A stretch of DNA of 64,000 bases from contig CAVTJJ010000004.1 in NCBI GenBank assembly GCA_963735035.1, forward strand, positions 1,184,001 to 1,248,000, in the 5' to 3' direction. Origin of the DNA: an uncultured candidate division Zixibacteria bacterium (GTDB taxonomy: Bacteria; Zixibacteria; MSB-5A5; GN15; FEB-12). Below are positions 9,858-30,870 of the stretch, in pieces. Both the position numbers and the translations under genes were made by a program. The notes beneath the pieces are model-generated. The model ran no database searches, was not told the DNA's origin, and worked only from the letters and a program-made list of their open reading frames with translations. Within the stretch, counting starts at the first letter, position 1; each line of letters starts with the position of its first letter.

Positions 9858-9880
9858 GATAAGCCTGATTTCCCGAACGG

Positions 9881-10479: not shown

Positions 10480-10611
10480 TAAAAAAAGGCTGTTTTTCGG
10501 GCTTCAGCGCCCCGACCGAACCATAAAAAGACGGTTCTAAGCGGAGGGCGTTCATCTCGTTATACACGCCGGGGCGTTGTTGAGGCGAATTGTGGGCTCG
10601 TCGAAGATTGT

Positions 10612-12352: not shown

Positions 12353-12368
12353 GGGTTAGGCTCTGAGA

Positions 12369-13070: not shown

Positions 13071-13076
13071 GGGAAT

Positions 13077-13514
13077 CTATCTCCGCGGGCGGCCCGTAGC
13101 GGCTTTCTCTTCGTAGGCGGTGACTAGGCCGATGTTTTCAATTCCGGCCGCTTTGATCTTGCCGATCAGATTGATGGCGTTGCCGTAGGCTATCGTGGAA
13201 TCGCCGCGCAGATAGACCGAGGTGGTGCCTTTGACTTCCATCTCATGCTTCAGTTTAGCGACGAATTCATTCGGATTAGAGAAGACGTCGTTGATGTAAA
13301 TCCCGCCCTTCTTGTCGATCGTGACCACCACACCGGTGACTTCGTCCTGAAGAATAGCAGCCCGTGTCTTGGGCAGATCGACTTCGATTCCCGATTGCAG
13401 AAGAGGCGCCGAGATCATAAAGATAATCAACAGTACCAGCACTACGTCCACCAGGTTGGTGATATTGATATCAGCCACGGTGTGGTAGTCGCGGGTGTGA
13501 GGGCGACGGGTCAT
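13077..13514 (-). CDS. tolR: TolR/ExbD family protein
   Basis: INITNLVDVVLVLLIIFMI, VDLP and LRGD motifs. Confidence 0.9.
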   Translation of the reverse strand: MTRRPHTRDYHTVADINITNLVDVVLVLLIIFMISAPLLQSGIEVDLPKTRAAILQDEVTGVVVTIDKKGGIYINDVFSNPNEFVAKLKHEMEVKGTTSVYLRGDSTIAYGNAINLIGKIKAAGIENIGLVTAYEEKAATGRPRR

Positions 13515-13515
13515 G

Positions 13516-15053: not shown

Positions 15054-15060
15054 AAGATCA

Positions 15061-15098
15061 AATAGTAAAGGGCTCTCGGCGTTAGCCGGGAGCCCTTT
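15061..15098 (-). terminator. Rho-independent terminator after the GlmL-like operon (possibly bidirectional)
   Basis: Minus-strand hairpin AAAGGGCTCCCGGC-TAAC-GCCGAGAGCCCTTT followed by ACTATTT, about 20 bp past the stop at 15120. Confidence 0.7.
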
Positions 15099-15119
15099 GA
15101 TCATATGCGGAAGTACGGC

Positions 15120-16241
15120 TTAGCCTTCGATCATCTCGACATTGGCGCGTGGAACGATCGCTTCGGTGTTGTCATCGAACCTGACACCAAGAATACGAGC
15201 CTTCGACTCCGATTCCAGCTTCTGTAGCGGCGACGGGAGATCGGTGACCGTGCCCAAACGACCGAAGTGAGGGTGACGGATCACGCGGATCGGCGAACCG
15301 ATAACCAGTCCGCCCGGTTCCTGTTCGAGAGCATCCGGGGTAATGGCCACACCCGGGGTCGGGATGACCAGTTCCGGTCGAATAACGCCGGCGCGAATCT
15401 GAGTGGCGCCGTTGATGCAGGCCATCTCGCCTTCATGTCGTTTCAAGAGCTCAAACGTCTTGGCGGCCATGTTGATTTGGCCAAAACCTTCGGTGACTAC
15501 CAGCGTGGTCGCGGTGTCTTCGGAGCCGGTAATAGCAACGCCAATGTCATAGCCGAGAAAATCGCGCAGGTCCTTGTCGTCAAATCCGCCGACCACAATG
15601 CCTCGCACGTTGAGCTTGATTGCCTTGCGCAGGGCGCCCGCGGTAACCAGCGATCCGCCGACAATGACTTTACCGGTCATCGATTCGAGCACGAGGTTTT
15701 CGTCCAGAACGACCGTCGGGTCTTTGACTGCGATCTGTATCGGACCGTTCTTTTCGCCGCCGATGCCAAAAATCCCCTGCACGAAACTGGCCATGCACTG
15801 GACTTCGACCCCTTCGGACGGATACACCTGGGTGACCTCGCCCTTCAGATATGCTTTCACCTCGACCGGACTCGGCGCTCCGCGCTGCAGGACCTGGCCT
15901 GTAATCGAAGATATCGATTCGATCGTACCGTCGATAGTAGCGTTGCACTGGTTCTTGAAGATGAAAAGAGTCTTGGAAACCGCCATCAACTCGCCGGCCT
16001 TGATTCGGTCGCCCACTTTCTTGAGCATCACCATTTCGATGTCTTCCGGCGGAATGCCCAGCTTGTTGGCGACGTTTATCGGGACAACACTACCCGGCAG
16101 TTCGGTGCGGGCTACGACATCGTCGGGGTTGACTTGGTCGCCGACTTTTCGAAGGACGTTTCCCTTCAGTGGCAGTATTCTATGTTTTTTGACCAGGAGC
16201 TTTTCTTTGACTTTGAGACCCGGTGTATATGCGTGACCCAT
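15120..16241 (-). CDS. Hypothetical cytoplasmic protein with barrel-sandwich-hybrid motifs and a C-terminal KOW-like motif; partner of the GlmL-like ATPase
   Basis: KVGDQVNPDDVVA and KKVGDRIKAGELMA...ATIDGTIESI hybrid-motif halves; C-terminal GSPIRVIRHPHFGRLGTV; no signal peptide or TM. Confidence 0.75.
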   Translation of the reverse strand: MGHAYTPGLKVKEKLLVKKHRILPLKGNVLRKVGDQVNPDDVVARTELPGSVVPINVANKLGIPPEDIEMVMLKKVGDRIKAGELMAVSKTLFIFKNQCNATIDGTIESISSITGQVLQRGAPSPVEVKAYLKGEVTQVYPSEGVEVQCMASFVQGIFGIGGEKNGPIQIAVKDPTVVLDENLVLESMTGKVIVGGSLVTAGALRKAIKLNVRGIVVGGFDDKDLRDFLGYDIGVAITGSEDTATTLVVTEGFGQINMAAKTFELLKRHEGEMACINGATQIRAGVIRPELVIPTPGVAITPDALEQEPGGLVIGSPIRVIRHPHFGRLGTVTDLPSPLQKLESESKARILGVRFDDNTEAIVPRANVEMIEG

Positions 16242-16244
16242 GGT

Positions 16245-17027
16245 TTAACCCTTTTGCGTGTTCGAGCTGTTAGCCTGTTGTCTCTTCTTCCTCAAGCGTA
16301 CTATCAAGACGAGGAGTATGATGAAGAGGGGCGTTCCGAATATGAGCGGATAGTTGAGGGAGCCTTCGGGCTTCTTTTCAATGTCTGCGACCTTTACCGG
16401 TTCGGCCGTGGTCGCATTCGGAAGCGGCTCGGTTGAGACCGACATAATCATCTCACGGTACAACGGAAGATTAGCTGCATACTTGAATGTGGGTGAATAA
16501 AAATAGAAGTTGGCGATACCCTGCTCGTAGAACGTCATGACCAGAAGATTGATCTTGGTTCCGGAACTGTCGCCGGGGACCTCTGATTCTACCGAAGCAC
16601 GCTTGCCCGCCCGGTCGAAGACGACCGAATCCTTGCAGTATGACCTCAGAAAGACATCGGAGGTGACTTCCTTGATGGGGCGCTTGAATTCCGTAGACAA
16701 GCTGCCGATGACCGAATCGATCTGGTGGGGGGCAAGATTGCCGACCGTATCGACTGTGAGGATGAGGTACTGATCCTCGAAAAGGACCATCGCATTCTTC
16801 TCACAGAAGACGGCCTCGAATTCGACTTTCTGGGCCGTATCGCCGCGTGACAGATAGAACTGGGCGGTGGTGTAATCGAGTTGAGTCCAGGTGTCGGGAT
16901 AAGTAAAATGAAACCGGCCGTTGTAGCTGACAAAAGTCTCGGCCGAGGCCGACACCGTCGCCAGGCACAGCGACAACACTACCAGACTCAGCATCAGTCC
17001 CAACCGTGTTAATCTGATCGAATACAT
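16245..17027 (-). CDS. Exported protein with C-terminal membrane anchor (PsbP-like N-terminus possible)
   Basis: Signal peptide ending ASA, GRFHFTYPDTW, C-terminal hydrophobic helix followed by RLRKKR. Confidence 0.7.
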   Translation of the reverse strand: MYSIRLTRLGLMLSLVVLSLCLATVSASAETFVSYNGRFHFTYPDTWTQLDYTTAQFYLSRGDTAQKVEFEAVFCEKNAMVLFEDQYLILTVDTVGNLAPHQIDSVIGSLSTEFKRPIKEVTSDVFLRSYCKDSVVFDRAGKRASVESEVPGDSSGTKINLLVMTFYEQGIANFYFYSPTFKYAANLPLYREMIMSVSTEPLPNATTAEPVKVADIEKKPEGSLNYPLIFGTPLFIILLVLIVRLRKKRQQANSSNTQKG

Positions 17028-17039
17028 TTAGGTCACTCC

Positions 17040-18899
17040 CTATTTCTGATCCAGCACGCCGGTCGGATAGATGTCCAACTCGGTCATCCACTTCTTCAAT
17101 TGAGCCACGCGATCTTTTTCCGGCAGCGAGGAGAGGTCGAACGGGCGTCCGCGTCCGTCGAGAATGATTCCCACCACACCACCGTGCAGTTCGCGCTCAA
17201 CTTTGTTGCCGGGGCCGGCGCCGACATCGAACCCGCGTTCCGGTTCGAGCACCGCGCGGGCCATCTGAGGCAGGCCATTTTCCTGCAGCCCCAGCTTGAA
17301 CAGTCTCATATCGAGATAGTTCAACGTTCCACTGACAACGCCATCGGGCAGATGGATCTGATACTTCATTATCGGCCCCGGCTTCTTCATTGTCCCAACC
17401 GGAGCGACACAAGTGCCCAGATGAATCAGGCAATCCTTTTCGAATACTTCAGTGGCGGCGCGCGGTTGAACCTCGGTCAGCACACCCAGTTGCGGCATCA
17501 TGAAGATAGAATCCACCGCCAGTCGGGTGACGCCTTCCGGCATGAAAGCATCGATCAACATCAGGCCGGACTGTTGACGGCGCGGCGCGTGAGAGAGCAC
17601 GCCGCCCGAACCGATCAGCATGTCGAGCGTCATCATGTTGACGATCGTTCCACCGGAAGTTGACTGCTCGAAAGCATCGGCGATAGTGCGCTGCTGCTGG
17701 ACACCTTTGAGCACCGTGGCGAAATTCTTGTGCTGAATAAAGGCGAGACGCAGCGCTTCTTTGGCGATGGCCTGTTCGAAAATCAACTCTTCCATCGACT
17801 GCGGAATCGTGGTCGGACGGATCATCTTGTTCTTGACCCGGTTGCGCAGGTCGCGCTCGTTCATCTCGAACGGCACCCAGCGCATGACCATCGGAAGCGT
17901 CGCCTCGGCGAAAACATTCGAAATCGAGTAGGACATGCCCAGGTTGGCCGAGACCGTACGGTTGAAGACGCCGGTCTTGCCGTCCGGACGGAATACCGAG
18001 AAGACGTCAGTCGTAGCGCCGCCGATGTCCACACCCACCGCCTCGATGCCGTACTGGTCGGCGATGGTCTTGATAATCAAACCGACTGCGCCCGGAGTGG
18101 GCATGATCGGGGCGTCGGTCCATTCCATCAGCTTCTTGTAGCCGGGGGCCTGCGCCATGACGTGTTCCATGAAGAGCTCGTGGATTTCTTCGCGGGCCGG
18201 GCCGAGATTTTCCATTTCGAGAACCGGGCGAAGATTGTCGACCGTTCTGAGATCGACCTTGCTTGACAAAGTCTTCTTGACTGCCTCGGCGGCATCTTTG
18301 TTGCCGGCGTAGATAATCGGTAATTTGTATCCGGTGCCCAGGCGTGGCTTGGGATCGGCTGCGGAGACGAGTTCGGCGATTTCAACCACGTGGGTCGTGG
18401 TGCCGCCGTCGATACCGCCTGAAAGAAGGATCATGTCGGGGCGGAGGTGGCGGATGCGTTCGATCTGCTGATGGGGGAGACGCTTGTCATTCGAAGCGAT
18501 GACGTCCATGACGATCGCACCGGCGCCCAGAGCCGCCCGCTCGGCCGATTCGGCGGTCATCGAACGAACCACACCGGCGACCATCATTTGAAGACCGCCT
18601 CCGGCTGATGATGTTGAAATATAGACGTCAGTGCCGATTCCGCCCTTGGCCGGAGATATGAACCGGTTGTTCTCGTCGAGTAACTTGCGTCCCGCCAGCT
18701 CTTCAAGCTCTGCGACCGCATTCAGCACGCCCATGGTTACATCTTCAAACGGGGCTTCCACGGTCGTGGGTGCTTCGCCGCGGGAGATAAGACGGTATTC
18801 GCCGTTCACATACTCGATCAGAATCGCTTTGGTGGTGGTTGATCCGCAATCGGTGGCAACAATTACCTTGATGTCTTCTGGGTTGTCGAACTTAGCCAT
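17040..18899 (-). CDS. GlmL/MutL-like (glutamate mutase accessory family) ASKHA-fold ATPase with C-terminal extension
   Basis: Phosphate-1 ATDCGSTTTKA, SSAGGGL, PDMILLSGGIDGG, IIYAGN, PTPGAV, phosphate-2 VDIGGATTDV, adenosine LIGSGGVLSH. Confidence 0.85.
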   Translation of the reverse strand: MAKFDNPEDIKVIVATDCGSTTTKAILIEYVNGEYRLISRGEAPTTVEAPFEDVTMGVLNAVAELEELAGRKLLDENNRFISPAKGGIGTDVYISTSSAGGGLQMMVAGVVRSMTAESAERAALGAGAIVMDVIASNDKRLPHQQIERIRHLRPDMILLSGGIDGGTTTHVVEIAELVSAADPKPRLGTGYKLPIIYAGNKDAAEAVKKTLSSKVDLRTVDNLRPVLEMENLGPAREEIHELFMEHVMAQAPGYKKLMEWTDAPIMPTPGAVGLIIKTIADQYGIEAVGVDIGGATTDVFSVFRPDGKTGVFNRTVSANLGMSYSISNVFAEATLPMVMRWVPFEMNERDLRNRVKNKMIRPTTIPQSMEELIFEQAIAKEALRLAFIQHKNFATVLKGVQQQRTIADAFEQSTSGGTIVNMMTLDMLIGSGGVLSHAPRRQQSGLMLIDAFMPEGVTRLAVDSIFMMPQLGVLTEVQPRAATEVFEKDCLIHLGTCVAPVGTMKKPGPIMKYQIHLPDGVVSGTLNYLDMRLFKLGLQENGLPQMARAVLEPERGFDVGAGPGNKVERELHGGVVGIILDGRGRPFDLSSLPEKDRVAQLKKWMTELDIYPTGVLDQK

Positions 18900-19009
18900 C
18901 AGGAATTCATCTCAGCTTTCTGTGTTGTGTCGCGCCTCACAGTTTGTTGTCTCCCAAGCGACTAACTTGGGGCCAAACCAGTGAGGACTATATTACAGTC
19001 AAGTCGAAA

Positions 19010-19038
19010 ATAATACCACAAGCCGTCTACCTTGTAAA
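19010..19038 (-). promoter_or_regulatory. Putative sigma70 promoter of the GlmL-like operon
   Basis: Minus strand TTTACA-N17-TATTAT with an extended -10 TG. Confidence 0.55.
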
Positions 19039-19197
19039 GGTCGATTTTGGACGCGCTTATTGACCGACTGATTGACGGCTGCATTTGTTGACAGAGAAGC
19101 GGGGCGTTTTGGGACTCTCGATTTCGGGTTAAAGCGGCTTATCCAATCGAAGCCCCCTTATCGCATTCCATCCTCGGATCCGGTTGGGGGTTTTCAC

Positions 19198-19226
19198 TTG
19201 ACTTGACCCGCAAGTGCCGATAGATT
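19198..19226 (+). promoter_or_regulatory. Putative sigma70 promoter of the 12-gene membrane operon
   Basis: TTGACT-N17-TAGATT. Confidence 0.55.
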
Positions 19227-19394
19227 GGCCTGTTCGAGGTTCCACAGGATTGCTCAGGCCTCCCCGTCGAACCGAACGGTTGTGGTTGCAGGTTGGATTT
19301 GACATTACCGGTCCTGGTTCGTCCCTTGGTGGGCTCGGCCTTCGCTTCCCTTTACAGGATGCGGGCTTAGAGTAGAAAGATTGGACTCTTCAGT

Positions 19395-20636
19395 TTGAGT
19401 GACCGTCTCCGACATCCCTTGACCTTACTGGTTGTCCTCGTACTAGTCGCAGTCCTGCCAATCGGCGCGTTACTGGCTCAATCGCCTCAACCGAATACAT
19501 CGACCCAAACTGCATCGTCGAATCTCCCCGTTCTCCGTCCGATCGATAGTCTGATCGGGAGCGATCTACCCAACGACGATGGGGGTGAAGTCAGACTGCG
19601 CTGGGCGATTTCTCCCGATGATGTCAAAGGTGGGGTGGTCACCGGATATCGCGTTCTGAAAGCTGTCGATCCCGACAGTCCTTTTGTTGAAGTCGGCGAC
19701 GTGGCCTCGGGGACAACCCAATTTGACGGTGGTGACATCGAGAACGGCCGACCGTACTTCTTCAAAGTTCGGGTGATGGGATTAGCGACGGGCGAAAATG
19801 GTGTCGTCAATGAGATCTTCACCGATTCGAAAATTGCCGGCCCCGTTATTTCATCGGTGCAGTACTTTCACGTGGGTCGACTGAATGTTGCGGTTGTCAC
19901 CGCCCTGGTGATTTTCCTGATCATCTTCTGGATTCAACGCGCGCGTTCGGGGGCCAAGCTCTACATTCGCAAGATTGCCGGACTGGATGCGGTTGACGAA
20001 GCCATCGGTCGGGCCACCGAGATGGGCAAGAAGGTTATTTACGTACCGGGCATCGATGATATGGACAATCTCATGACCATTTCCTCGATGATCATCCTGG
20101 GTTACGTGGCCGAAATAACCGCCACCTACGATACGTATTTGGAAGTGCCTACCTGCAAATCGATGGTCATGGTGACGGCCAAGGAAGTGGTGAAAGAAGC
20201 CTATACGAAAGTGGGACGGTCCGATTCTTATCATCCCGACCAGGTGCACTATTTAACCGATGATCAATTCGGCTATGCGGCGGCCATTGACGGCATCGTG
20301 GTACGTCAGAAACCGGCTACCATGTTCTATATAGGGTCATTCTATGCAGAATCGCTGATTCTGGCCGAAATCGGCAACGCCGCCGGCGCCATTCAAATTG
20401 CAGGCACGGCCCAGGCCAGCCAATTGCCGTTTTTCGTGACGGCTTGTGACTATACTCTCATCGGCGAGGAGATGTTCGCCGCTTCAGCTTATCTCTCCAA
20501 AGAGCCGAGGCTTCTCGGTTCGCTCAAGGGACAGGACTACGCCAAGGCTCTGATCCTGGCGGCCATACTTGTCGGTCTGATTCTTGAATCCTTTCATCTC
20601 TGGGGTGGTTTCCACAGCCTCTTTACGGTGGTGTAG
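19395..20636 (+). CDS. Module 1 gene A: signal peptide + FN3-like domain + TM + DUF6754-like domain + TM
   Basis: FN3-like LRWAISPDD...GYRV...YFFKV; IRKIAGLDAVDEAIGRATEMG, FYAESL and TLIGEE.FAASAYL shared with two paralogues. The DUF6754 name is recalled, not searched. Confidence 0.8.
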   Translation: MSDRLRHPLTLLVVLVLVAVLPIGALLAQSPQPNTSTQTASSNLPVLRPIDSLIGSDLPNDDGGEVRLRWAISPDDVKGGVVTGYRVLKAVDPDSPFVEVGDVASGTTQFDGGDIENGRPYFFKVRVMGLATGENGVVNEIFTDSKIAGPVISSVQYFHVGRLNVAVVTALVIFLIIFWIQRARSGAKLYIRKIAGLDAVDEAIGRATEMGKKVIYVPGIDDMDNLMTISSMIILGYVAEITATYDTYLEVPTCKSMVMVTAKEVVKEAYTKVGRSDSYHPDQVHYLTDDQFGYAAAIDGIVVRQKPATMFYIGSFYAESLILAEIGNAAGAIQIAGTAQASQLPFFVTACDYTLIGEEMFAASAYLSKEPRLLGSLKGQDYAKALILAAILVGLILESFHLWGGFHSLFTVV

Positions 20637-20638
20637 CA

Positions 20639-21289
20639 ATGCGTAGAACAGTACCCCTGATTATTACCGGAGTCGTAGGCATTGTATTCGTAGTCTCGTA
20701 TTTTTCGCCCCCCCTTACTATTCTCAACGACAAGTTTTCCGACTGGTTCTCGATCGTGGCGGCTTGTTCGATTGTATTGGGCTCGCTAAATCTGGTACTG
20801 ATTTCCACTCAGAAGGTCATTAGTCGCAGAGAAGATTGGTTCTACGCCGGTGTCATCATAGCTTGCTTCCTGGCGATGCTCATATCGGGTCTCTGGGCCG
20901 GCCGTGACTTCGGGGGTGGGAACACCGGAACCCCGTTCGAATGGCTCTATAACTATCTTTACAACCCGCTGTCGTCTACTATGTACGCGATCCTGGCCTT
21001 CTATGTGGCGTCAGCGTCGTACCGTGCGTTCCGCGCCCGTAACATCGAGGCTACCATGCTTCTGGTTGCCGCGTTTCTGGTTATGCTTGGTCGCGTTCCC
21101 ATTGGCGACGTTCTGACCGGATTCCTTCCCGAGGGCTCCCGGATGTCGGATCTGCAGCAATGGATCATGGATTATCCGCAGACGGCCGGACAACGCGCCA
21201 TCATGATCGGCATTGCGCTCGGTATCGTGTCGACCTCACTTCGCGTAATTCTCGGCGTTGAACGTTCCCACCTTGGGGGAGGCGACTAA
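20639..21289 (+). CDS. Module 1 gene B: multi-pass membrane protein
   Basis: About 6 hydrophobic segments; AFYVASASYRAFRARN and AGQRAIMIGI.LG...LR.ILG.ER shared with two paralogues. Confidence 0.8.
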   Translation: MRRTVPLIITGVVGIVFVVSYFSPPLTILNDKFSDWFSIVAACSIVLGSLNLVLISTQKVISRREDWFYAGVIIACFLAMLISGLWAGRDFGGGNTGTPFEWLYNYLYNPLSSTMYAILAFYVASASYRAFRARNIEATMLLVAAFLVMLGRVPIGDVLTGFLPEGSRMSDLQQWIMDYPQTAGQRAIMIGIALGIVSTSLRVILGVERSHLGGGD

Positions 21290-21292
21290 GCC

Positions 21293-22315: not shown

Positions 22316-22316
22316 C

Positions 22317-22940
22317 ATGGATCATCTCGGACTCTGGGTAGCAGGCTTATTGACGCTCGGAATTTACTCATTCTTGTATCGTGACAACCCGTGGTACAAG
22401 TTCTCGGAGGCGGTGTTTGTCGGGATCTCAGCCGGATACTGGGTCGTCTACGAATTCTGGAACAATTTTGTCAACAAGTTCTGGGATGGAAGGAATCAGG
22501 ATCCCTGGCTCTGGGTAGGCGCCATTCTTGGTCTGATGATGCTCATGCGGCTGGTTCCTAAGATCGGTTGGATTTCCCGCTGGCCGCTCGCGTTTATCAT
22601 CGGTGCAACCTCGGGACTCTGGCTCATGCTCTATCTTACGACCAACTGCATGTCGCAGGTGGAAGCGACTATTTTCCCGTTGTTTGGCATTCAAAATGAA
22701 GCTTCAATGATCACGATCTTCAGCAGCATCGTACTCATTGTCGGTACGGTCAGCGGCGTCATATATTTCTTCTTCTCCAAAGCTCACACCGGTGCGTTCG
22801 GGGCGACTGCGCGGGTAGGCATATGGACGATCATGATTACGTTCGGAGCGATGTTCGCGCTGACAATCATGAATCGTATGTCGCTTCTGATCGGCCGCAC
22901 TTCGTTCATTTTTGGCCAGTGGCTGGGGCTAATCAAGTAA
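22317..22940 (+). CDS. Module 1 gene D: multi-pass membrane protein
   Basis: SFLYRDNPWYKF.E, WISRWPLA and YFFFSK.HTG motifs; ATG at 22317 after GGAGGGG. Confidence 0.8.
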   Translation: MDHLGLWVAGLLTLGIYSFLYRDNPWYKFSEAVFVGISAGYWVVYEFWNNFVNKFWDGRNQDPWLWVGAILGLMMLMRLVPKIGWISRWPLAFIIGATSGLWLMLYLTTNCMSQVEATIFPLFGIQNEASMITIFSSIVLIVGTVSGVIYFFFSKAHTGAFGATARVGIWTIMITFGAMFALTIMNRMSLLIGRTSFIFGQWLGLIK

Positions 22941-24211
22941 TGGCATGTCGGCGAGGCACTCAGGGTGGTGGAGCTCGCAGCCCGTACAATAAATTCTGTC
23001 TTCTGGTTCTGCTTTCAATCTTCGCGTTCGTAGTCGGTGTCACAGCTCAAGAACAATCAGCCGGCATGGTGATCGAGAAGGAGACCGGCGCCGAGGCACC
23101 CGCTCCGGTCACTTCACTCATTGCCGAAGACTTCAAATACGACGACGGCGAAAACCTGGCCCTCACCTGGATACCGTCAATAGATGACCGGCCCGGCTCG
23201 GACCGTGTGACCGGGTACCAGGTTTACCAGATCGCCAACAGCGGCCCGCCCGTCAAGATCGCCGAGCTATTGCCGGGCGCGAATTCCTACCGCGCCCAGA
23301 ATCTGTTTCGCGATACAGTCTATCAATTCAATGTCAAGACGTTGGCGGAGGGGGCTTCCACAGAATCCGTTCGCACGGAAGCCATTTCGCCCCGGCGTGA
23401 GTGGATCGACTGGAACCTCTGGAACCTGATGCTGATCACCCTCGTGATAGCGGGCGCCATTCTGGTATTCATCGAAACCGCCAAGAGAGGGAAGAAGCTG
23501 TTCGTGCGAAGGATCGCCGGGCTCGAAGCTGTAGACGAGGCCATCGGACGCGCCACCGAGATGGGGCGGCCGATCCTCTTCATACCCGGCATTCAGGACA
23601 TGGATGATGTCCAGACTCTCGCCGCTCTGACAATCCTGGGCCGGGTGGCCGAGCATGTCGCAACTTACGACATCAAGCTTCGGATGCCGGTATCCCGGTC
23701 GCTGGTGATGACTGCCGCGCGCGAGACGATTAAGACCAGCTTCTCCGCGGCCGGACGTCCCGACGCCTATAACGAAGATATGGTCAGCTACGTGACCGAC
23801 GAGCAGTTCGGATACGTGGCGGCGGTGAGTGGCATCATGGTGCGTGAGAAACCGGCCACCGTGTTTCTGCTCGGCGCGTTCATGGCGGAGTCTTTGATTC
23901 TGGCCGAGACCGGCAATTCGGTCGGTGCGATTCAGATCGCGGGCACCGCTCGCCCGGCTCAGCTCCCGTTCTTTGTAGCCGCCTGCGACTTCACACTGAT
24001 CGGCGAAGAATTGTTTGCGGCATCGGCGTACTTGTCCGGCGAACCGCGGGCGCTGGGTTCACTCAAAGGTCAGGATGTCGGCAAGGCAATCGGCATGGCC
24101 GCGATTGTTCTCGGCACGGCCGCGGTCACACTGTATGCCATGACCGATGCGGTCTGGCTCAAGACTGTGGCGGACTGGTTCCAGGCATTCTTCACGGTGG
24201 CATCGGATTAG
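22940..24211 (+). CDS. Module 2 gene A: FN3-like + DUF6754-like membrane protein
   Basis: ATG overlaps the previous stop (TAATG); LTWIPSIDD...GYQV; RRIAGLEAVDEAIGRATEMG. Confidence 0.8.
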   Translation: MACRRGTQGGGARSPYNKFCLLVLLSIFAFVVGVTAQEQSAGMVIEKETGAEAPAPVTSLIAEDFKYDDGENLALTWIPSIDDRPGSDRVTGYQVYQIANSGPPVKIAELLPGANSYRAQNLFRDTVYQFNVKTLAEGASTESVRTEAISPRREWIDWNLWNLMLITLVIAGAILVFIETAKRGKKLFVRRIAGLEAVDEAIGRATEMGRPILFIPGIQDMDDVQTLAALTILGRVAEHVATYDIKLRMPVSRSLVMTAARETIKTSFSAAGRPDAYNEDMVSYVTDEQFGYVAAVSGIMVREKPATVFLLGAFMAESLILAETGNSVGAIQIAGTARPAQLPFFVAACDFTLIGEELFAASAYLSGEPRALGSLKGQDVGKAIGMAAIVLGTAAVTLYAMTDAVWLKTVADWFQAFFTVASD

Positions 24212-24214
24212 ACT

Positions 24215-24895
24215 ATGAGACGCGAGATCCCGCTGGCCATAACCATTTTCGTCGGACTACTGGCGATTGTCTCATTCTTCAGTCCTCCCATGGAAGGTCT
24301 GGGCGAAGATTTCACGCTGTTCTTTGATATCATTGCCGTCTTCGCGTTCTTCCTCGGTGGTGGCAATCTCGTTCGCATACATGCCGACAAGTTGATTCGG
24401 AGAAAGAAAGAGTGGGGCTACTCGGTAGTCACGCTGGTCGGCTTCCTGGGGATGCTGGCCGCGGGTCTATTCAAGATCGGCAATCCGGGAGACATATCAA
24501 CTTCGGTAACAGCCCCCGGCTCTTTGTTCGCCACCCTCTATTTCAATTTGAATTTACCGCTGGGAGCGACCATGTACGCACTGCTGGCGTTCTATGTGGC
24601 CTCGGCGTCGTATCGGGCGTTTCGCGCTAAGAATCGTGAAGCCACTGTGCTGCTGGTAGCAGCGTTTGTCATATTGCTCGGCAGCACGCCGTTTGGCACG
24701 ATGCTCACTTCCTGGATACCGTCATCATTCAGTTGGCTGCAGATTCCGAATATGGCGGTCTGGATTATGAGCTCGCCCAACCTGGCCGGACAGCGGGCTA
24801 TCATGATCGGTATCGGTCTCGGTGTAGTGTCGATGTCACTGCGTCTAATTCTAGGCATTGAGCGCACTTATCTTGGAGGGGACGAACGTGGGTGA
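24215..24895 (+). CDS. Module 2 gene B: multi-pass membrane protein
   Basis: AFYVASASYRAFRAKN and AGQRAIMIGIGLG motifs. Confidence 0.8.
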   Translation: MRREIPLAITIFVGLLAIVSFFSPPMEGLGEDFTLFFDIIAVFAFFLGGGNLVRIHADKLIRRKKEWGYSVVTLVGFLGMLAAGLFKIGNPGDISTSVTAPGSLFATLYFNLNLPLGATMYALLAFYVASASYRAFRAKNREATVLLVAAFVILLGSTPFGTMLTSWIPSSFSWLQIPNMAVWIMSSPNLAGQRAIMIGIGLGVVSMSLRLILGIERTYLGGDERG

Positions 24896-25805
24896 TTACC
24901 GCGTCATAATTGTCCTGCTCCTGATTGGTGGGGGACTGGTCTGGCTGTTGGTGCGGGCGCTGCGCGGCAAGGAAGTTGACCGCCGGTTGGTGTTCGCGTT
25001 CATTTTCATCTCTGTAGCAGCCCCGCTGCTTCTAACGATTACGTTCGAGATGAAACCGACCCCGGTAGTCAAGGCGCTCTATGACCGGATCGATACTCTT
25101 CCGCCAGGATCACGCATTCTCCTGTCGTACGATTTTGATCCGCCCATGGCCCCCGAAGTACAACCCATGGCCGATGTGGTCAGCCGCCATTGTCTGGCGC
25201 GGGGACATAAAGTAGTCTTTATGACACTCTGGGCGACTGGGCAGGCGCAGTTTCTCGCGACCCTTCAGGATGTGATTCGCCCCGACTTCCCCGATATGAA
25301 GGATGGCGTCGACTACGTTGATCTCGGCTACAAGGCCGGCAACGAGGGTGTGCTGAACGTCATCCGCACCGATTTCAAGAAGATGTTTCCGACCGATGTC
25401 AACACGGTGCCGTGGGACAGCATTCCCATTCTCGACGGGATTCGATCCTGCTCCGATTTTGATTTGATCGTCTCGCTGGGCGGCGGCAAGCCGGGTGTCA
25501 AAGAATGGGTCCTGTTCGTGGGTGATCCGTGCGGCGTTCCGACCGCCGGTGGCGTGGCGGCAGTGGTGGCCCCGATGCTCTACCCATACTATCCGACCCA
25601 GATGTGTGGTCTGCTCGGTGGAATCAAGGGAGCGGCCGAATACGAGAATTATCTGCGTGACAATTATCCGCGTTTCGCCAAAATGAAAACTCCGGCGATG
25701 GTCATGATGGGGCCTCAGACTGTGGCGCACGTAGTAATCCTGGCTTTCATTGTCATTGGTAATGTTCTTTTCTTCGTCCAGCGTCGCAAAGAGGTGAAAC
25801 GATGA
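24888..25805 (+). CDS. Module 2 gene C: membrane protein with soluble alpha/beta domain
   Basis: GTG start after GGAGGGG; DFDP..PEVQPM, DGVDYVDLGY, YPYY, GAAEYE and H..ILAFIVIGN motifs. Confidence 0.8.
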   Translation: MGDYRVIIVLLLIGGGLVWLLVRALRGKEVDRRLVFAFIFISVAAPLLLTITFEMKPTPVVKALYDRIDTLPPGSRILLSYDFDPPMAPEVQPMADVVSRHCLARGHKVVFMTLWATGQAQFLATLQDVIRPDFPDMKDGVDYVDLGYKAGNEGVLNVIRTDFKKMFPTDVNTVPWDSIPILDGIRSCSDFDLIVSLGGGKPGVKEWVLFVGDPCGVPTAGGVAAVVAPMLYPYYPTQMCGLLGGIKGAAEYENYLRDNYPRFAKMKTPAMVMMGPQTVAHVVILAFIVIGNVLFFVQRRKEVKR

Positions 25806-26635
25806 GCCGCCTGAGTATCATTGTCCTCGCGGCGGTCTGCCTGCTCTTTGCGGTGAGCTGGGTGGTTAGAGCGGGTGTGACCGAAGGCGACACGGCGGTG
25901 CGCGATGCGTTTCTCGTGACCCTGTCGGCCTTTATGACCCTCGCGATCATGTCGTTCATGTACAAGGACAATCCGTATTACAAATTCGCCGAGCACCTGT
26001 TCGTGGGGATTTCGGCCGCCTACTGGATGTGTGTCGGGTTCTGGTCAACGATTGTTGGCAACCTGGTCCCGCGGGTGTCCGAGAGTCTGTCGGCCTTCTT
26101 CAGAGTGCCGTACTCAGGTGGCGGGCTGGATTTCGGTGCGATCTACCTGCCGTATCGCTATTTCTACATGATCCCGGTCATCCTGGGGATCTTGTTACTG
26201 ATGCGCCTGGTGCCGAAGGCGGGCTGGCTCTCGCGCTGGCCACTGGCGTTCATCGTCGGCACGTTTGCCGGTCTTAATTTGATACGGTATCTCCAGTCAG
26301 ATTTTGTCAATCAGATCTCCGCGACATTCATACCGCTGGTTACCGACTGGCATGGGTTCGGAGCCTTCTTCTCAGGATTGTCACTATCGTTTGACGGCCA
26401 ACTGGTCGCTATTTTGACGAACCTCGTGATTTTTCTTGGTGTATTTTGCGGATTGATATATTTCTATTTCTCGAAGGAACATACTGGATGGTTCGGAAAT
26501 GCGTCGCGCTTTGGTATCTGGATTCTCATGATCACTTTCGGCGCGTCTTTCGGCTATACGGTTATGGGACGCATATCGCTCCTGGTGGGGCGGCTGACGT
26601 TTCTGTTCCAGGACTGGTTAGGAATTAGAGGCTAA
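25802..26635 (+). CDS. Module 2 gene D: multi-pass membrane protein
   Basis: SFMYKDNPYYKFAEH, WLSRWPLA and YFYFSKEHTG motifs; ATGA overlap with gene C. Confidence 0.8.
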   Translation: MSRLSIIVLAAVCLLFAVSWVVRAGVTEGDTAVRDAFLVTLSAFMTLAIMSFMYKDNPYYKFAEHLFVGISAAYWMCVGFWSTIVGNLVPRVSESLSAFFRVPYSGGGLDFGAIYLPYRYFYMIPVILGILLLMRLVPKAGWLSRWPLAFIVGTFAGLNLIRYLQSDFVNQISATFIPLVTDWHGFGAFFSGLSLSFDGQLVAILTNLVIFLGVFCGLIYFYFSKEHTGWFGNASRFGIWILMITFGASFGYTVMGRISLLVGRLTFLFQDWLGIRG

Positions 26636-26640
26636 ATCAT

Positions 26641-28242
26641 ATGTCCTTGGTGAAAGGTCGCCAGATGAGACACAAACTCAGACTTGCGATTGTCCTGATG
26701 CTGGGCCTCGGGTCGGTCGCGGTCGCACAGACCGATCCGGCAACGGCGGGTTCGGCTGCGGTCGTACAGCCGGGAGCCGAGGTTCGAGCCGTCTCGCCCC
26801 CTGCCCCGATAACCAACCTGCAGGCAGTCGACAAGAAGGATGACCATGGTCACGCTATCACGTTGACCTGGACGAAATCGGCTGACGACGGCGCAGGCGC
26901 CAACTCGGTTATCTCGTACGAAATCCAGCGCTGGTTTCCGTTCCAGATGGACGTAGTCGAGTCGCTGCGTAAAGATTTGGCGGCCACACGGGACGCCGTC
27001 AGAGCCTTCCGAATCGATCTGCCTCGGGCGGAGCGGGCGCTCGAAGAACTCCGCGAGGATCCGGGCAAGCTGAATACGATTCGATTTCAGGTAGCCAGAC
27101 CACCTGATACGAGCTTCAAACCAACGGTCGACTATGCGATCAAGAAGCTCGAAGATACTATCGGGTATATGCGCGACAATCGGCCGCTCCTGATGAGTCG
27201 GATAAAGCCAATGCAGCAGGATCTTGACAAGGCGCTTGATCGTCTGCCTGAGGCACATGTCGCTTATCCCAAAGACGGGGAATGGCGATCGGTAGGGAAG
27301 GCCCTGGTGGGAGCCACCAGCTTTGACAACGTCGGTTCTAAAGATAATTTGTCGGCCGACTACTTTCCCGACTATACCGATCTGTACTACCGGGTACAGG
27401 CTGCCACGGCCGATGCGTCGGTAAAGTCGGTCGCGGTCACGGTTGGTCCGATCCAGAGCCGGGGGCAGTGGATTCACATGGGCAAGCTCCCGGTGCTCGG
27501 TTTCGTGCTGCTGTTCTTTGTTCTCACCGTGACTTTTGTACAGAAGGCGAAGAGTGGGGCGGATCTTTACGTCAGACCACTGGCAGGAATTGAGGCTGTC
27601 GACGACGCCATCGGTCGCGCCACCGAGATGGGACGCCCCATACTCTACTTGCTCGGGATCGGGACTGCCACCGATGTATCCACTATCGCGTCGTTCTCGA
27701 TTCTGGGACGGGTTTCCAAGCGGGTGGCTGAATACCAGACACCGATTATTGTCCCCTGTTATGACCCGATCGTGATGGCGGTAGCTCAGGAAGTGGTTAA
27801 GTCATCGTATCTGGACGCCGCCCGGGCGGATGATTACAGGCAGGATTCGGTGTTCTTCGTTACGAACTATCAGTTCGCCTATGTGGCGGCGGTCAACGGC
27901 ATTATGCTTCGCGAGCGCCCCGCTACCAATATATACATGGGCAAATTCATGGCTGAGTCCTTGCTTCTGGCCGAGACCGGAACGCTGGCCGGGTCGATTC
28001 AGATCGCGGGCACCGATGAAATCGCTCAAATTCCATTCTTCATCGTGTCGTGTGACTATACCCTGATTGGTGAAGAACTCTACGCTGCGTCGGCGTATCT
28101 CGGCCGGGAGCCGGTGTTGCTCGGTTCGCTCAAGGCCCAGGACTGGGCCAAGGCCGTCGTGATGTTGATTGCCGTTATCGGGATGATCGGTACCGCTCTC
28201 GGCTGGGCCGATTTCGCACATTGGTTCCAGGTAACGGAGTAG
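26641..28242 (+). CDS. Module 3 gene A: FN3-like domain with helical insertion + DUF6754-like domain
   Basis: LTWTKSADD...SYEI, a ~100 aa helical insert, then RPLAGIEAVDDAIGRATEMG. The start may be 26665. Confidence 0.8.
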   Translation: MSLVKGRQMRHKLRLAIVLMLGLGSVAVAQTDPATAGSAAVVQPGAEVRAVSPPAPITNLQAVDKKDDHGHAITLTWTKSADDGAGANSVISYEIQRWFPFQMDVVESLRKDLAATRDAVRAFRIDLPRAERALEELREDPGKLNTIRFQVARPPDTSFKPTVDYAIKKLEDTIGYMRDNRPLLMSRIKPMQQDLDKALDRLPEAHVAYPKDGEWRSVGKALVGATSFDNVGSKDNLSADYFPDYTDLYYRVQAATADASVKSVAVTVGPIQSRGQWIHMGKLPVLGFVLLFFVLTVTFVQKAKSGADLYVRPLAGIEAVDDAIGRATEMGRPILYLLGIGTATDVSTIASFSILGRVSKRVAEYQTPIIVPCYDPIVMAVAQEVVKSSYLDAARADDYRQDSVFFVTNYQFAYVAAVNGIMLRERPATNIYMGKFMAESLLLAETGTLAGSIQIAGTDEIAQIPFFIVSCDYTLIGEELYAASAYLGREPVLLGSLKAQDWAKAVVMLIAVIGMIGTALGWADFAHWFQVTE

Positions 28243-28254
28243 GAGGTAAACTGA

Positions 28255-29070
28255 ATGAAACAACAAGTGCCACGTCTAATAGTACTCGTATTTGGAGCGT
28301 TCCTCCTATTTCAATTCTTTGTTCCCCATGAATCGTCTGAGTGGATCTACGAATTCCTGCTCGATTGGACCATCATCATAGGTGTGTTCGCGCTTGCGGT
28401 AGGTATCTGGTCGATCTTCAACGTTCACGTCGAGAAGATTCGGACCAAGAAATTCGGCTGGAAGTACTCATACGTAACGCTGACCGGATTCGTTGCTATG
28501 GTGCTGTTCGGCATGACCAGCCAGAACGGTCAGGAATGGGGCTGGTTCTTTCCGTTCATAGCCGCGGCGATCCTGACGGTACTTATGATTGTGCAGGCCA
28601 GTGCCTCCAAGGGGAACGCCGGACCGTTTATCGGTGCCGCCTTGCTGTTCGTCGTCGCAGCGGCGGTCATTGCCTGGAGAGACAATACCTGGAGTTTCTA
28701 CTTCCAGACGCCGGTGCCGCTCCAATCCTTCATGTTCCGGAGGATGTTTGATAACGTTCTGATTTCGCTTCACGCCACGACGTTTTCGCTGCTGGCGTTC
28801 TTCATAGCGTCGGCGGCGTACCGATCTTTCCGGGCCCGCAACGTTATGGCCAGTCTGTTGCTCATCGCGGCGCTGGTAGTGATGTCCCGGTTCAACCCGT
28901 ATCTCGAACCACTCTTCGGCGAGAAAGTAAATCGGCTGTCGAACTGGCTGATGAACGTCCCCAACCTGGCGGCTCAGAGAGCGGTCATCATGGGGATCGG
29001 GCTGGGTATGGTGGCGACAGCGCTCAAGGTGGTGCTGGGTATTGAACGCAACTATATGGGCAAAGGATAA
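28255..29070 (+). CDS. Module 3 gene B: multi-pass membrane protein (about two extra TMs)
   Basis: AFFIASAAYRSFRARN and AAQRAVIMGIGLG motifs; AGGAGG RBS. Confidence 0.8.
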   Translation: MKQQVPRLIVLVFGAFLLFQFFVPHESSEWIYEFLLDWTIIIGVFALAVGIWSIFNVHVEKIRTKKFGWKYSYVTLTGFVAMVLFGMTSQNGQEWGWFFPFIAAAILTVLMIVQASASKGNAGPFIGAALLFVVAAAVIAWRDNTWSFYFQTPVPLQSFMFRRMFDNVLISLHATTFSLLAFFIASAAYRSFRARNVMASLLLIAALVVMSRFNPYLEPLFGEKVNRLSNWLMNVPNLAAQRAVIMGIGLGMVATALKVVLGIERNYMGKG

Positions 29071-29081
29071 GGAGTCCGGTC

Positions 29082-29969
29082 ATGAATATATTCGATAGAT
29101 TGATGCAGCTTGACCGGCGTTGGGTGTTCCTCTTTCTGGCGATTGTGTGTGTAATCGCCTACGCTTCCCAATTTGAGGTGCCCATTCTGGTTGAGCCCGA
29201 AGTGAAGGCTATTTTCACGTTCATCGATACCTTGCCCAAGGGGTCGGTGGTGTTTGTTCCAATGGATTACGATCCCGGCTCGATGGCGGAGCTGCATCCC
29301 ATGACTTATGCCATTGTCGAGCAATGCTGGCGCAAAGAGTTGAAGGTACTGATTACAGCGTTATCTCAGAACGGACCCGGCATGGCCGATCAGGCCATTC
29401 GGGAAATCGTCGACTCGCTGAAAATGCCCCGTACATACAATGGTGTGTCCTACCCGGCGCGGGAAATTGTCAACGGTGTTGACTACGTCTTCCTGGGCTA
29501 CAAGCCGTATCCGGCCATTGTTATCCTTGGCATGGGGCAGAATTTCCGCTTGCCGTTCCCGCTTGATTATTACGGGACGCCAATCGATTCGCTTCCAATG
29601 ATGCGAACGATTCAGAACTACAATGACATCGCCTGTGCGATCAATATCTCGGGCACGAACGCCACCGACTATTGGATATCGTACGGTCAGGGCAAGTTCG
29701 GATTCCCGCTGGCGATAGGTGTCACCGGCGTTTCGACGGCCCAGTATTATCCCTACTATGGCTCGCGGCAGATCTTCGGCATCATGGGTGGAATGCTGGG
29801 CGCGGCGGAGTATGAGGATCTATCCGATAATCCGGGCAACGCCAAGGATGCCATGCGCGTGCAGCTTTCGGCGCATCTGGTCATTATCGCCTTTGTCGTT
29901 ATGGGCAACATCGCGTACTTCGTGACCTTGCGAAAACGGAAACGCGGTCAAACGGAAGGAAGGAGGTAA
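29082..29969 (+). CDS. Module 3 gene C: membrane protein with soluble alpha/beta domain
   Basis: DYDP..AELHPM, NGVDYVFLGY, YYPYY, GAAEYE and H..IIAFVVMGN motifs. Confidence 0.8.
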   Translation: MNIFDRLMQLDRRWVFLFLAIVCVIAYASQFEVPILVEPEVKAIFTFIDTLPKGSVVFVPMDYDPGSMAELHPMTYAIVEQCWRKELKVLITALSQNGPGMADQAIREIVDSLKMPRTYNGVSYPAREIVNGVDYVFLGYKPYPAIVILGMGQNFRLPFPLDYYGTPIDSLPMMRTIQNYNDIACAINISGTNATDYWISYGQGKFGFPLAIGVTGVSTAQYYPYYGSRQIFGIMGGMLGAAEYEDLSDNPGNAKDAMRVQLSAHLVIIAFVVMGNIAYFVTLRKRKRGQTEGRR

Positions 29970-29973
29970 CGCC

Positions 29974-30807
29974 GTGGATTACACGACTTTCCTGTGGACA
30001 ACTGCCGGAGCCTTCCTGACGCTCTGCATCTTCTCGTTCTTGTACAAAGACAATCCTTTCTATAAGTTCGCCGAACATCTCTTCGCTGGACTCTCGGCCG
30101 GGTACTTCGCCATGATTCTATGGCACAACGGCCTGATTCCCAAGCTGATGTATGATCGCTTGGACGATGGCAACTGGTATTTCCTCTGGCTGGATTCGTC
30201 CAAGCCCTGGTTCCTGATTCCGGCGCTGCTAGGGGTTCTGATGTGGACCCGCTTCTCGCAGAAATACCAGTGGATATCGCGGTTCCCGCTCGCGATGTAT
30301 ATCGGCATCGGCGCCGGCATGGCGATACCTCTGGAGATGCGCGCCCGAGTGAACGAACAATTGTCGGCCATGATGCGCACGGCTCCATGGAATCAAGCTT
30401 ATTGGGACCACTTCTTCGGTAACGGCGGGTTCAACCTGCTTGACACGATGTCCGGTCTCTCGCAGTTGATCGTCTTCATAGGCGCCATCTGTGCTCTGGT
30501 GTACTTCTTCTTCTCGAAGGCCCATACCGGGGTCGTTGGGGGCATGGCCAAGTTCGGTATCTGGATATTGATGATCGGTTTTGGTGCGTCATTCGGTTTC
30601 ACCGTGATGGCGCGTGTATCGTTGTTCATCAACCGGATGCAGTTCCTTGACCAGCGGTGGATCAAGACCGCGACTGCTGAGGCCGCGCCATGGTGGTACC
30701 TGGGGATTCTACTCCTCGTGGTGACGGTGGCTGTGGTCTACGCGGTCTGGGAGATTGTTGCCTTCATGGGTCGCAAGAAGAACGCGGGCGCCAATCAAGC
30801 CGGCTGA
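29974..30807 (+). CDS. Module 3 gene D: multi-pass membrane protein
   Basis: SFLYKDNPFYKFAEH, WISRFPLA and YFFFSKAHTG motifs; GTG start after AGGAGG. Confidence 0.8.
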   Translation: MDYTTFLWTTAGAFLTLCIFSFLYKDNPFYKFAEHLFAGLSAGYFAMILWHNGLIPKLMYDRLDDGNWYFLWLDSSKPWFLIPALLGVLMWTRFSQKYQWISRFPLAMYIGIGAGMAIPLEMRARVNEQLSAMMRTAPWNQAYWDHFFGNGGFNLLDTMSGLSQLIVFIGAICALVYFFFSKAHTGVVGGMAKFGIWILMIGFGASFGFTVMARVSLFINRMQFLDQRWIKTATAEAAPWWYLGILLLVVTVAVVYAVWEIVAFMGRKKNAGANQAG

Positions 30808-30833
30808 TCGAAAACAGACTGACGATTAATCTC

Positions 30834-30870
30834 GAAACCCTGCCTTTTCAGAGGCGGGGTTTCTTTTTTT
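30834..30870 (+). terminator. Rho-independent terminator ending the 12-gene operon
   Basis: GAAACCCTGCC-TTTTCAGA-GGCGGGGTTTC followed by T7. Confidence 0.85.

Follow-up and report, generated by a model that had tools for sequence, protein, structure and literature searches.

A GlmL/MutL-family ATPase and its partner protein are encoded with repeated four-gene membrane modules in Zixibacteria and other bacterial phyla

The characterized proteins of the GlmL/MutL type are accessory, reactivase-like proteins of B12-dependent mutases. Shared energizing units are known from importers, where a MsiK-type ATPase serves ATP-binding cassette (ABC) sugar importers and one EcfAA'T unit works with many S components in the energy-coupling factor (ECF) transporters, and in the mannose-family phosphotransferase system (PTS) the general proteins EI and HPr act with four-part, sugar-specific EIIA-D modules. 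Here, we analyzed a 64,000-nucleotide stretch of DNA (the window, C4:1184001-1248000) from a 3.6-Mb, 96.9% complete genome of an uncultured Zixibacteria bacterium. It encodes a GlmL/MutL-family ATPase (T) and a partner protein (P), with a third protein (X) between them, and, on the opposite strand, three successive copies of a four-gene module of membrane proteins (A-B-C-D). Comparison across genomes indicates that T, P, A, B, C, D, and two further membrane proteins (E and F) are one conserved gene set, that T and P act as a pair, as judged from their adjacency and fusion, and that the ABCD modules have been duplicated and have diverged, in contrast to T-P, which has remained a single, almost unchanged pair.

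Each of these described systems resembles the locus in some respects and departs from it in others. T covers the whole GlmL/MutL profile (PF13941; E value of 5.9e-128, residues 13-490, profile positions 1-450 of 450) and keeps the nucleotide-site stretches of the ASKHA (actin/Hsp70/sugar-kinase) superfamily, but it scores below every NCBIfam cut-off for the group (NF040745, 237 versus 475; NF040744, 223 versus 600; TIGR01319, 170.7 versus 204.05), is 619 amino acids (aa) long with a C-terminal extension of about 130 aa, and has P and membrane proteins, not mutase subunits, as its constant neighbors. P is reminiscent of RnfC (PF13375) and NqrA (PF05896), since its N-terminal domain matches RnfC_N and NQRA_N, it is soluble, and its gene accompanies those of polytopic membrane subunits; however, it lacks Fe-S cysteine motifs, having no invariant Cys. 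Rnf and Nqr families are absent from the best 25 of 92 families matched by B and the best 25 of 41 matched by D, and no redox cofactor signature was seen anywhere in the system. By analogy, the occurrence of one conserved cytoplasmic ATPase unit per genome with several divergent, scattered membrane modules may recall the MsiK and ECF arrangements, although here there is no P-loop or ABC ATPase and no ABC or ECF membrane family, and the ATPase has the actin/Hsp70 fold. The combination of single-copy general proteins, one of them (T) with a kinase-type fold, and repeated four-gene modules (two proteins with soluble domains and two polytopic ones) might likewise be compared with the mannose-family PTS, but A to D have no Pfam or NCBIfam match to EII families, and P has no invariant His or Cys to carry phosphate, apart from a near-invariant His3.

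Linkage of the ATPase-partner pair to the membrane modules

We compared two sets of loci, 77 found with an alignment of A in species genomes and 80 metagenome loci found independently with an alignment of P; related genomes are kin, and the counts below overstate independence. The order A-B-C-D is kept in 67 of the 77 A-anchored loci, and most of the 10 exceptions are cut by contig ends. T or P is present in 24 of the same 77. T, P, and A follow one another in that order on one strand in 16 of them (Eisenbacteria, Zixibacteria, and other metagenome-assembled genomes [MAGs]), and the divergent Zixibacteria form accounts for 5. Rifleibacterium (L041) and Bruticola (L065) carry the pair on the ABCD strand but downstream of the module, and in other phyla the genes have the single-strand order (F)-(E)-T-P-A-B-C-D. 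Of the 80 P-anchored loci, 59 have T directly upstream of P, with X allowed in between; among the 56 whose sequence extends 2.6 kb or more upstream, 49 do so. ABC(D) occurs in 25 of the 37 loci whose sequence runs on for 5 kb or more downstream.

We also found T and P as single polypeptides. A fused T-P of 939 aa is encoded in another Zixibacteria genome (L161:2580-5399, minus strand) and one of 950 aa in a WOR-3 genome (L162:6760-9612, minus strand); both are diverged second copies, 44% and 40% identical to T, respectively, and the window's genome has no such copy. Two further proteins, P0024 and P0091 (995 and 1,003 aa), have a full-length P match at their C-terminal end.

Presence of the families in whole genomes agrees with this link. 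Five genomes that have ABCD apart from T-P contained full-length P in four cases and T in four cases, while the fifth genome (G045) gave three weak, partial P matches alone (E values of 1e-15 to 6e-12). In the WOR-3 sample, P was found in 138 of 151 genomes; nine of the 10 P-negative genomes checked (of 13) were without A, PF13941 was found in none of the five P-negative genomes tested for it, and A was present in all five P-positive ones tested. In the window's own family, 17 of the 22 T-bearing genomes have an A gene within about 3 kb of T; the A-T distance is 9 to 20 kb in one sister family, and two other sister families have no A near T among the matches listed, with 42 A matches outside that listing. 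The divergent-promoter layout is a local feature of the family to which the window belongs. The initial annotation of the window had proposed that T and P belong functionally with A to D, and the same-strand T-P-A order, the frequency of ABC(D) beside P, and the joint loss in WOR-3 bear this out; co-occurrence had been set beforehand as the check on that proposal, and it returned T-P-A on one strand in the 16 loci and the loss of P, T, and A together in the WOR-3 sample. Judged from these gene comparisons, the link between T-P and ABCD is well supported.

The two halves of the set differ in copy number and in conservation. The window's genome has five ABCD modules versus one T, with a single PF13941 match; three of the modules are those of the window, and the others are singletons (L001 and L002) with A proteins that are without an ectodomain. 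T proteins are 75 to 93% identical within the order and 58 to 87% identical across phyla, and P proteins are 47 to 70% identical across phyla; conservation of A to D across genomes is about 30 to 50%. In a midpoint-rooted FastTree tree of 104 C-family rows, the three C proteins of the window fall into separate clades of 17 (C1), 11 (C2), and 12 (C3) tips, with support of 0.995, 1.0, and 1.0, respectively. Since each of these clades includes orthologues from other genomes, the triplication of the module is old. The clades of the singleton-module C proteins are poorly supported (0.31 and 0.0). Within the window's order, the A-family domain PF20539 (DUF6754) was found in 41 of 41 genomes, mostly in five copies each, and T in 39 of 41; in the phylum of genome G044, all 16 genomes searched have A, and 14 of them have P. 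At an E value of ≤1e-10, the P family comprises 2,369 clusters at 50% identity. The system was absent from all 14 model genomes tested.

Gene layout and protein families of the set

The twelve module genes and the T-X-P operon occupy opposite strands on either side of a 495-nucleotide (nt) intergenic region (18900-19394), as the initial annotation had described them. T (17040-18899), X (16245-17027), and P (15120-16241) are on the minus strand, where they form the divergent three-gene operon that had been reported to encode an ATPase, an anchored exported protein, and a barrel-sandwich protein. The twelve tightly packed open reading frames (ORFs) lie on the plus strand between positions 19395 and 30807, with gaps of 12 nt or less or overlaps; from A1 to D3, the successive intergenic gaps are 2, 3, 1, -1, 3, -38 (-8 if C2 starts at GTG 24888), -4, 5, 12, 11, and 4 nt. 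A single promoter at 19198 and a terminator at 30834 had also been proposed for this operon. Both sites exist: the plus-strand promoter-like site at 19198-19226 has 9 of 12 consensus matches, and a terminator-like hairpin of 13 pairs followed by a T-run is found at 30834-30863 on the plus strand, 27 nt past the D3 stop. However, the "one promoter" part of the claim carries no evidence because promoter-like sites in the region are no commoner than in shuffled sequence (15 observed versus 10.7 in shuffles, with a standard deviation of 3.0). Such sites occur on both strands, and one on the minus strand (19038-19010) has 10 of 12 consensus matches and is TG-extended.

Within T, residues D17, G19, T21 to T23, and K24; D291, G293, G294, T296, T297, and D298; and G430 to G433 are invariant in 17 sequences. 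We take the stretches D17-K24, D291-D298, and G430-G433 to be the phosphate-1, phosphate-2, and adenosine motifs of the ASKHA fold, respectively. With these nucleotide-site stretches kept, T belongs to the ASKHA superfamily and is predicted to be competent as an ATPase. A profile search of the PDB found no solved structural relative by sequence. The initial annotation had noted that no B12-dependent mutase is encoded nearby, and we likewise found no mutase subunit gene (GlmS/GlmE or relatives) among the 51 window ORFs scanned and no glutamate mutase (PF06368) in the 96.9%-complete genome; two matches to the B12-binding family PF02310 lie on contigs C1 and C3, while the window is on contig C4. 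Three proteins of 1,332 to 1,334 aa (P0002 to P0004) join a T-like PF13941 part, 49 to 52% identical, to a Peptidase_M1 domain (PF01433), and one of them, from a Bacillota MAG, carries the name "glutamate mutase L." This automatic name, given to at least one relative, does not fit the T proteins. The genome has an ordinary MreB and an ordinary FtsA, and the idea that T replaces either was rejected because both are present.

P is a predicted cytoplasmic protein of 373 aa with an N-terminal barrel-sandwich hybrid domain, followed by a highly conserved, glycine-rich remainder. Among 23 members, 89 alignment columns are invariant, and none of these is Cys or His, His3 being near-invariant. At an E value of ≤1, the N-terminal domain matches Biotin_lipoyl in 18 of the 23 members, RnfC_N in 13, and NQRA_N in 8, with best E values of 2.8e-6 for RnfC_N and 0.0022 for NQRA_N; the window's own P gives a weak Biotin_lipoyl match and lies below the curated cut-offs. 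A role for P as a lipoylated or biotinylated carrier was rejected because the hairpin lysine is not conserved: the hairpin-tip column, which we placed in the alignment at what is presumably the site of the modified lysine, varies among K, Q, R, V, and A. No sequence relative of P was found in a profile search of the PDB, and its clusters in the ESM Atlas are unnamed or weakly named. In two loci (L147:9980-12006 and L155:9965-12007), a P homologue without T within 10 kb precedes an unnamed protein of about 295 aa, and a gene for an Era-type GTPase is close by; the P family may be used differently there. X (260 aa) begins with a signal-like helix, ends in a C-terminal membrane anchor, and has just a weak PsbP-like match at residues 11 to 53. 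It is confined to Zixibacteria-type loci (for example, L030, L048, L055, L080 to L084, L086, L093, L099, and L132) and is missing from the T-P pairs of other lineages, making it a lineage-specific insert between T and P.

Two small, conserved families of membrane proteins, whose genes come just before T in most lineages, also belong to the T-P-ABCD system on the basis of gene neighborhood. E (105 to 170 aa in other lineages) has a hydrophobic hairpin with the motif T.PAI.FLES.KPL.F.G.Q and then a charged tail, and F (155 to 177 aa) has two helices followed by a domain with the motif LSPF..RLE.FRG; neither has a Pfam match. In the 61 T-bearing loci whose sequence extends 1.2 kb or more upstream, profile hidden Markov models place E beside T in 36, find F in 19, and give the order F-E-T in 12. 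Genes in the fetched loci were called as longest ORFs, with starts set by a simple rule, and a spurious ORF once masked E and F. In the window's genome, F (163 aa; L160:8580-9071, minus strand) and E (171 aa; L160:8065-8580, minus strand) overlap by one base on contig C3, and this separate location is the reason that both are missing from the gene set of the initial annotation. Beside them is an ORF of 332 aa assigned from its N-terminal sequence as an IS30-like transposase (L160:6985-7983, plus strand, or G000:C3:355984-356982), which hints at how an ancestral operon broke up. Drawing on the gene orders in other lineages, we read the ancestral unit as F-E-T-P-(ABCD)n, with T-P inverted, X inserted, and F-E relocated in the window's lineage.

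The threefold repeat of the module that the initial annotation had reported is present, with four families in a fixed order three times over. Paralogues are 33 to 52% identical across the three copies; identity to the first copy is 44 and 43% for the second and third copies of A, 52 and 33% for B, 38 and 36% for C, and 46 and 40% for D, respectively. The family motifs named at that time are likewise invariant in all three copies (AIGRATEMG and TLIGEE in A, ASA.YR.FRA.N in B, GAAE in C, and Y.DNP.YKF.E and FSK.HTG in D), with a correction to the spacing in C, where four residues, not two, separate D(Y/F)DP and E..PM. Comparison of B with D and of A with C by hhalign gave probabilities of 0.7% and 1.7%, respectively, indicating no homology between subunits.

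A proteins are bitopic and are defined by the DUF6754 domain (PF20539), which matches A1 (19395-20636), A2 (22940-24211), and A3 (26641-28242), all on the plus strand, at E values of 2.9e-115, 5.1e-121, and 2.4e-111 and scores of 384.2, 403.1, and 371.4 bits, respectively; the genome's two other A proteins reach 395.3 and 314 bits (gathering cut-off, 27). A1 has a signal peptide, an FN3 ectodomain, a transmembrane (TM) helix, the cytoplasmic DUF6754 domain, and a second TM helix. In A2, whose start was revised to ATG 22940, giving a 1-nt overlap with the D1 stop, we find a signal peptide, FN3 (with a weak fn3 match of its own at 4.4e-4), and DUF6754, while the FN3-like ectodomain of A3 is broken by long helical inserts before DUF6754. 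An AlphaFold2 (AF2) model of A1 (mean predicted local distance difference test score [pLDDT], 91.0) has strands at 54-152, a helix at 160-184, six beta-alpha units at 197-368, and a helix at 371-399. Its ectodomain is an FN3 domain, with fold matches up to Z 12.3 and titin FN3 found in a PDB profile search. The model suggests that DUF6754 is a Rossmann-like, cytoplasmic domain. Nothing specific to the DUF6754 part of A1 was found with Foldseek or VIA-align, with no row above Z 10.7 covering it, and its fold was barely probed because FN3 matches filled both listings. Foldseek rows for the LNS2 domain of Nir2 were distrusted, with TM-scores of just 0.2 to 0.3, and the ESM Atlas gave no usable named match for the DUF6754 protein. 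The DUF6754 alignment contains many invariant acidic and polar residues. The ectodomain varies in size from none, in the 292-aa A protein of L001, to about 650 aa in L120, where a 924-aa A-family protein (L120:11109-13883, plus strand) has DUF6754 at residues 663 to 917; an A-family open frame of about 800 aa is found at L059:9458-11863.

C proteins have a soluble domain as well. C1 (21293-22315) is anchored at both ends and has a periplasmic Rossmann-like domain and extra N-terminal helices, its fold being borrowed from the model of C3; C2 (24858-25805) may start at GTG 24888; C3 (29082-29969), like the other two on the plus strand, has a TM helix at 12-28, an alpha/beta domain at 39-248, and a long C-terminal helix at 253-293. 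The AF2 model of C3 (pLDDT, 96.0; predicted TM-score [pTM], 0.90) consists of the helix, the alpha/beta domain, and the 40-residue helix. Its fold matches are generic Rossmann-like ones, the best being 1kjn_B (Z 9.8; root mean square deviation, 3.1; 138 residues aligned), with RCK/KTN domains at Z 8 to 9, and no Foldseek match at an E value of ≤0.001 was found. The last helix of C contains an invariant His and Asn.

B and D proteins are polytopic, with six helices. B1 (20639-21289; 216 aa) has about six, B2 (24215-24895) is 52% identical to it, and B3 (28255-29070) has an additional hydrophobic insert of about 50 aa. D1 (22317-22940; 207 aa), whose start was revised to ATG 22317, has three conserved motifs in predicted cytoplasmic loops; D2 (25802-26635) and D3 (29974-30807) follow, the latter with an additional C-terminal helix. 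All six genes are on the plus strand. Neither B (104 members) nor D (86 members) has a consistent Pfam family, and matches are scattered and weak; the commonest of these among B/D members is TMD0_ABC (26 of 104; best E value, 8.7e-5). The topology predicted from hydropathy, positive-inside counts, and the signal peptide and FN3 domain of A places DUF6754 in the cytoplasm and the C domain in the periplasm, and the predicted cytoplasmic loops carry the best-conserved motifs, ASA.YR.FRA.N of B, at a predicted cytoplasmic helix end, and Y.DNP.YKF.E and FSK.H.G of D. This topology of A to D is inferred from the AF2 models of A1 and C3 together with hydropathy. The twelve module proteins have no match to a characterized transporter family in Pfam or NCBIfam at an E value of ≤0.01, and PDB profile searches of A and C gave no sequence relative other than FN3 for A. 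The initial annotation had named confident full-length matches of A to D to a characterized transporter as a ground against its proposal, and no confident match of this kind was found in Pfam, NCBIfam, PDB sequences, or the fold searches with A1 and C3.

Neighboring genes

Downstream of T-X-P on the same strand is a Tol-Pal cluster (9090-14232, minus strand) encoding TolQ, TolR, a TonB_C-type TolA, TolB, Pal, and YbgF. A MotA_ExbB gene is the next gene after P in three other loci (L055:2416-3132, L080:11746-12462, and L081:11613-12326), and in the fetched loci adjacency of Tol-Pal to P was not seen outside the window's lineage. The interval between P and TolQ contains a 137-aa ORF (14691-15104, minus strand) with an odd, low-complexity translation and, inside it, a 12-pair hairpin (14956-14983). 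It had zero relatives in 157 loci (L003 to L159) and one weak match in the genome (31% over 70 aa); it was dropped as a fourth gene of the T-X-P operon, being without relatives in those loci, and is probably non-coding spacer. The remainder of the window contains ordinary diderm core genes (BamA, Skp, LpxD, Lgt, LigA, UvrB, and others), and two neighboring stand-alone response-regulator receiver genes (140 and 133 aa; 4579-5481, plus strand) are found without an adjoining kinase gene.

Genes beside the modules elsewhere are weak hints that point to nutrient or envelope traffic. A TonB-dependent receptor gene is just downstream in four loci, and the L002 module adjoins a sugar ABC importer. The Zixibacteria singleton module without an ectodomain (L001 and L003 to L027) is preceded in 11 loci by a bifunctional-type PGI/PMI gene and followed in 9 by a gene for a sugar-phosphate nucleotidyltransferase. 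The surroundings of the L001 module (G000:C4:440000-458000) also include genes for a GNAT protein and for PTS enzyme I and, beside the latter, an unannotated ORF of just 89 aa. Lipoate-protein ligase (LplA/B) genes are just downstream of ABCD in L032, L040, L047, and L111, and genes for the glycine-cleavage P or T protein are beside T-P in L124, L125, and L143.

A possible shared ATP-driven unit and its alternatives

Our preferred, though tentative, reading is that T-P may be a shared ATP-driven cytoplasmic unit serving several substrate-specific ABCD membrane modules, and we favor it because there are five modules versus one T and because T and P are far better conserved than A to D. A, B, C, and D would form one four-subunit inner-membrane complex, of which the twelve genes would encode three ancient paralogous versions, and T-P would be the cytoplasmic half of the system and, with E and F, its ATP-driven unit. 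T-P would dock on the conserved cytoplasmic face of each module, made up of the A domain and the conserved B and D loops, and would drive conformational cycling by which a substrate is moved or assembled at the envelope. The variable periplasmic parts would set the specificity of each module, and five modules that differ mainly in their periplasm-facing parts would thus give five specificities. A complex prediction for A1 (155-413) with B1, C1 (60-340), and D1, in which one control was inseparable from the query, speaks neither for nor against binding. We searched the open-access literature for DUF6754, PF13941/PF20539, and GlmL with Zixibacteria and, judging by the titles and abstracts of the papers listed, found no relevant description; curated families, solved structures, and named Atlas clusters likewise offered no explanation for A to D, P, E, or F. 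The part of the initial annotation that called the system undescribed agrees with this, since no published function was found, while the part in which the ATPase and its partner energize or scaffold the complex stays a suggestion.

Several points weigh against a shared motor. The association between T-P and ABCD is known here from genes and sequence comparison. To our knowledge, no ASKHA-fold ATPase powers a transporter, so the mechanism would have no precedent, and the reactivase-like nature of the characterized relatives of T favors a chaperone role instead. The association itself has gaps, as P was found without T in 7 of the 56 P-anchored loci with room, L024 and L059 hold A without B, C, or D within about 9 kb, and WOR-3 genome G119 has four A genes but P was not found. 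The P-negative WOR-3 genomes may form one clade, which would amount to a single loss. Fold matches to the soluble domains of A and C are just generic Rossmann-like ones, so they provide no pointer to a substrate, and the flanking genes vary by lineage and may be there through inheritance of gene order alone.

In the main rival, T-P would be a maturation or repair factor that spends ATP to assemble, load, or repair ABCD, for example by exchanging a cofactor or ligand of DUF6754, with ABCD itself being an enzyme or an ion-coupled complex. This would suit the membership of T in PF13941, whose characterized members are mutase accessory proteins, and a single maturase could serve five paralogous complexes with one T-P pair. 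It would also suit T-P (with E/F) being encoded without ABCD nearby in 12 of the 37 P-anchored loci with downstream room, where no ABCD is found within 10 kb and which count against the shared motor as well, and the invariant acidic and polar residues of DUF6754, which resemble a ligand site. However, no cofactor-binding signature was found in A to D with Pfam or NCBIfam beyond DUF6754 and FN3, T scores under every GlmL cut-off and carries a C-terminal domain in addition, and the high conservation of T and P and the possession of membrane proteins of their own, E and F, would fit a permanent machine part better; we consider a maturation role unlikely on balance.

The remaining explanations are less likely than a maturation factor. 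If the modules were an envelope sensor or signaling array, the A ectodomains and the periplasmic domain of C would sense ligands and T-P would provide the cytoplasmic output, in keeping with the variable, FN3-like ectodomains, the several paralogous modules per genome, and the conserved cytoplasmic faces. Set against this, Pfam and NCBIfam scans found no kinase, HAMP, GGDEF, or receiver domain in the eight families, the ectodomain is missing from two of the five A proteins here, and near-universal presence in whole phyla is unusual for sensors, so that we give this idea little weight. A membrane-tethered scaffold, in which actin-like polymers of T or a static T-P platform anchored by E/F and ABCD would organize the envelope, might be argued from the actin/Hsp70 fold family of T, from its extreme conservation, as is seen in cytomotive filaments, and from the Tol-Pal genes that come after P on its strand, here and in L055, L080, and L081. 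But the genome encodes ordinary MreB and FtsA, polymerization is not known for GlmL-type proteins, and Tol-Pal was seen beside P in the window's lineage alone, which together make a scaffold quite improbable. It is more improbable still that there is no functional link at all, with a self-sufficient ABCD and T-X-P as a mere neighbor: the two sister families without A near T among the matches listed, and the complete WOR-3 chromosome G041, where T, P, and ABCD are 34 to 108 kb apart, would be expected in that case, but same-strand T-P-ABCD operons in several phyla, T-P fusions, and the loss of the families together would not.

Returning to the shared-unit reading, its strongest form, that the set represents a new class of primary active membrane machine in which an ASKHA motor and its obligate partner, in place of a P-loop, P-type, or rotary ATPase, work with interchangeable four-subunit modules of different specificity, is conceivable but doubtful. 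The window is a useful instance of the system since three diverged modules adjoin each other, and their constant cytoplasmic faces can be compared directly with their variable ectodomains and periplasmic loops. Of the eight co-traveling families, six are without a family name, one is a DUF, and one is misleadingly labeled "glutamate mutase L"; that a system so conserved and so widespread across many mostly uncultured phyla has no described function is a real gap in what is known about the envelope of bacteria. Should the modules indeed be powered by the ATPase, this would be a new energy-coupling principle for membrane transport or assembly.

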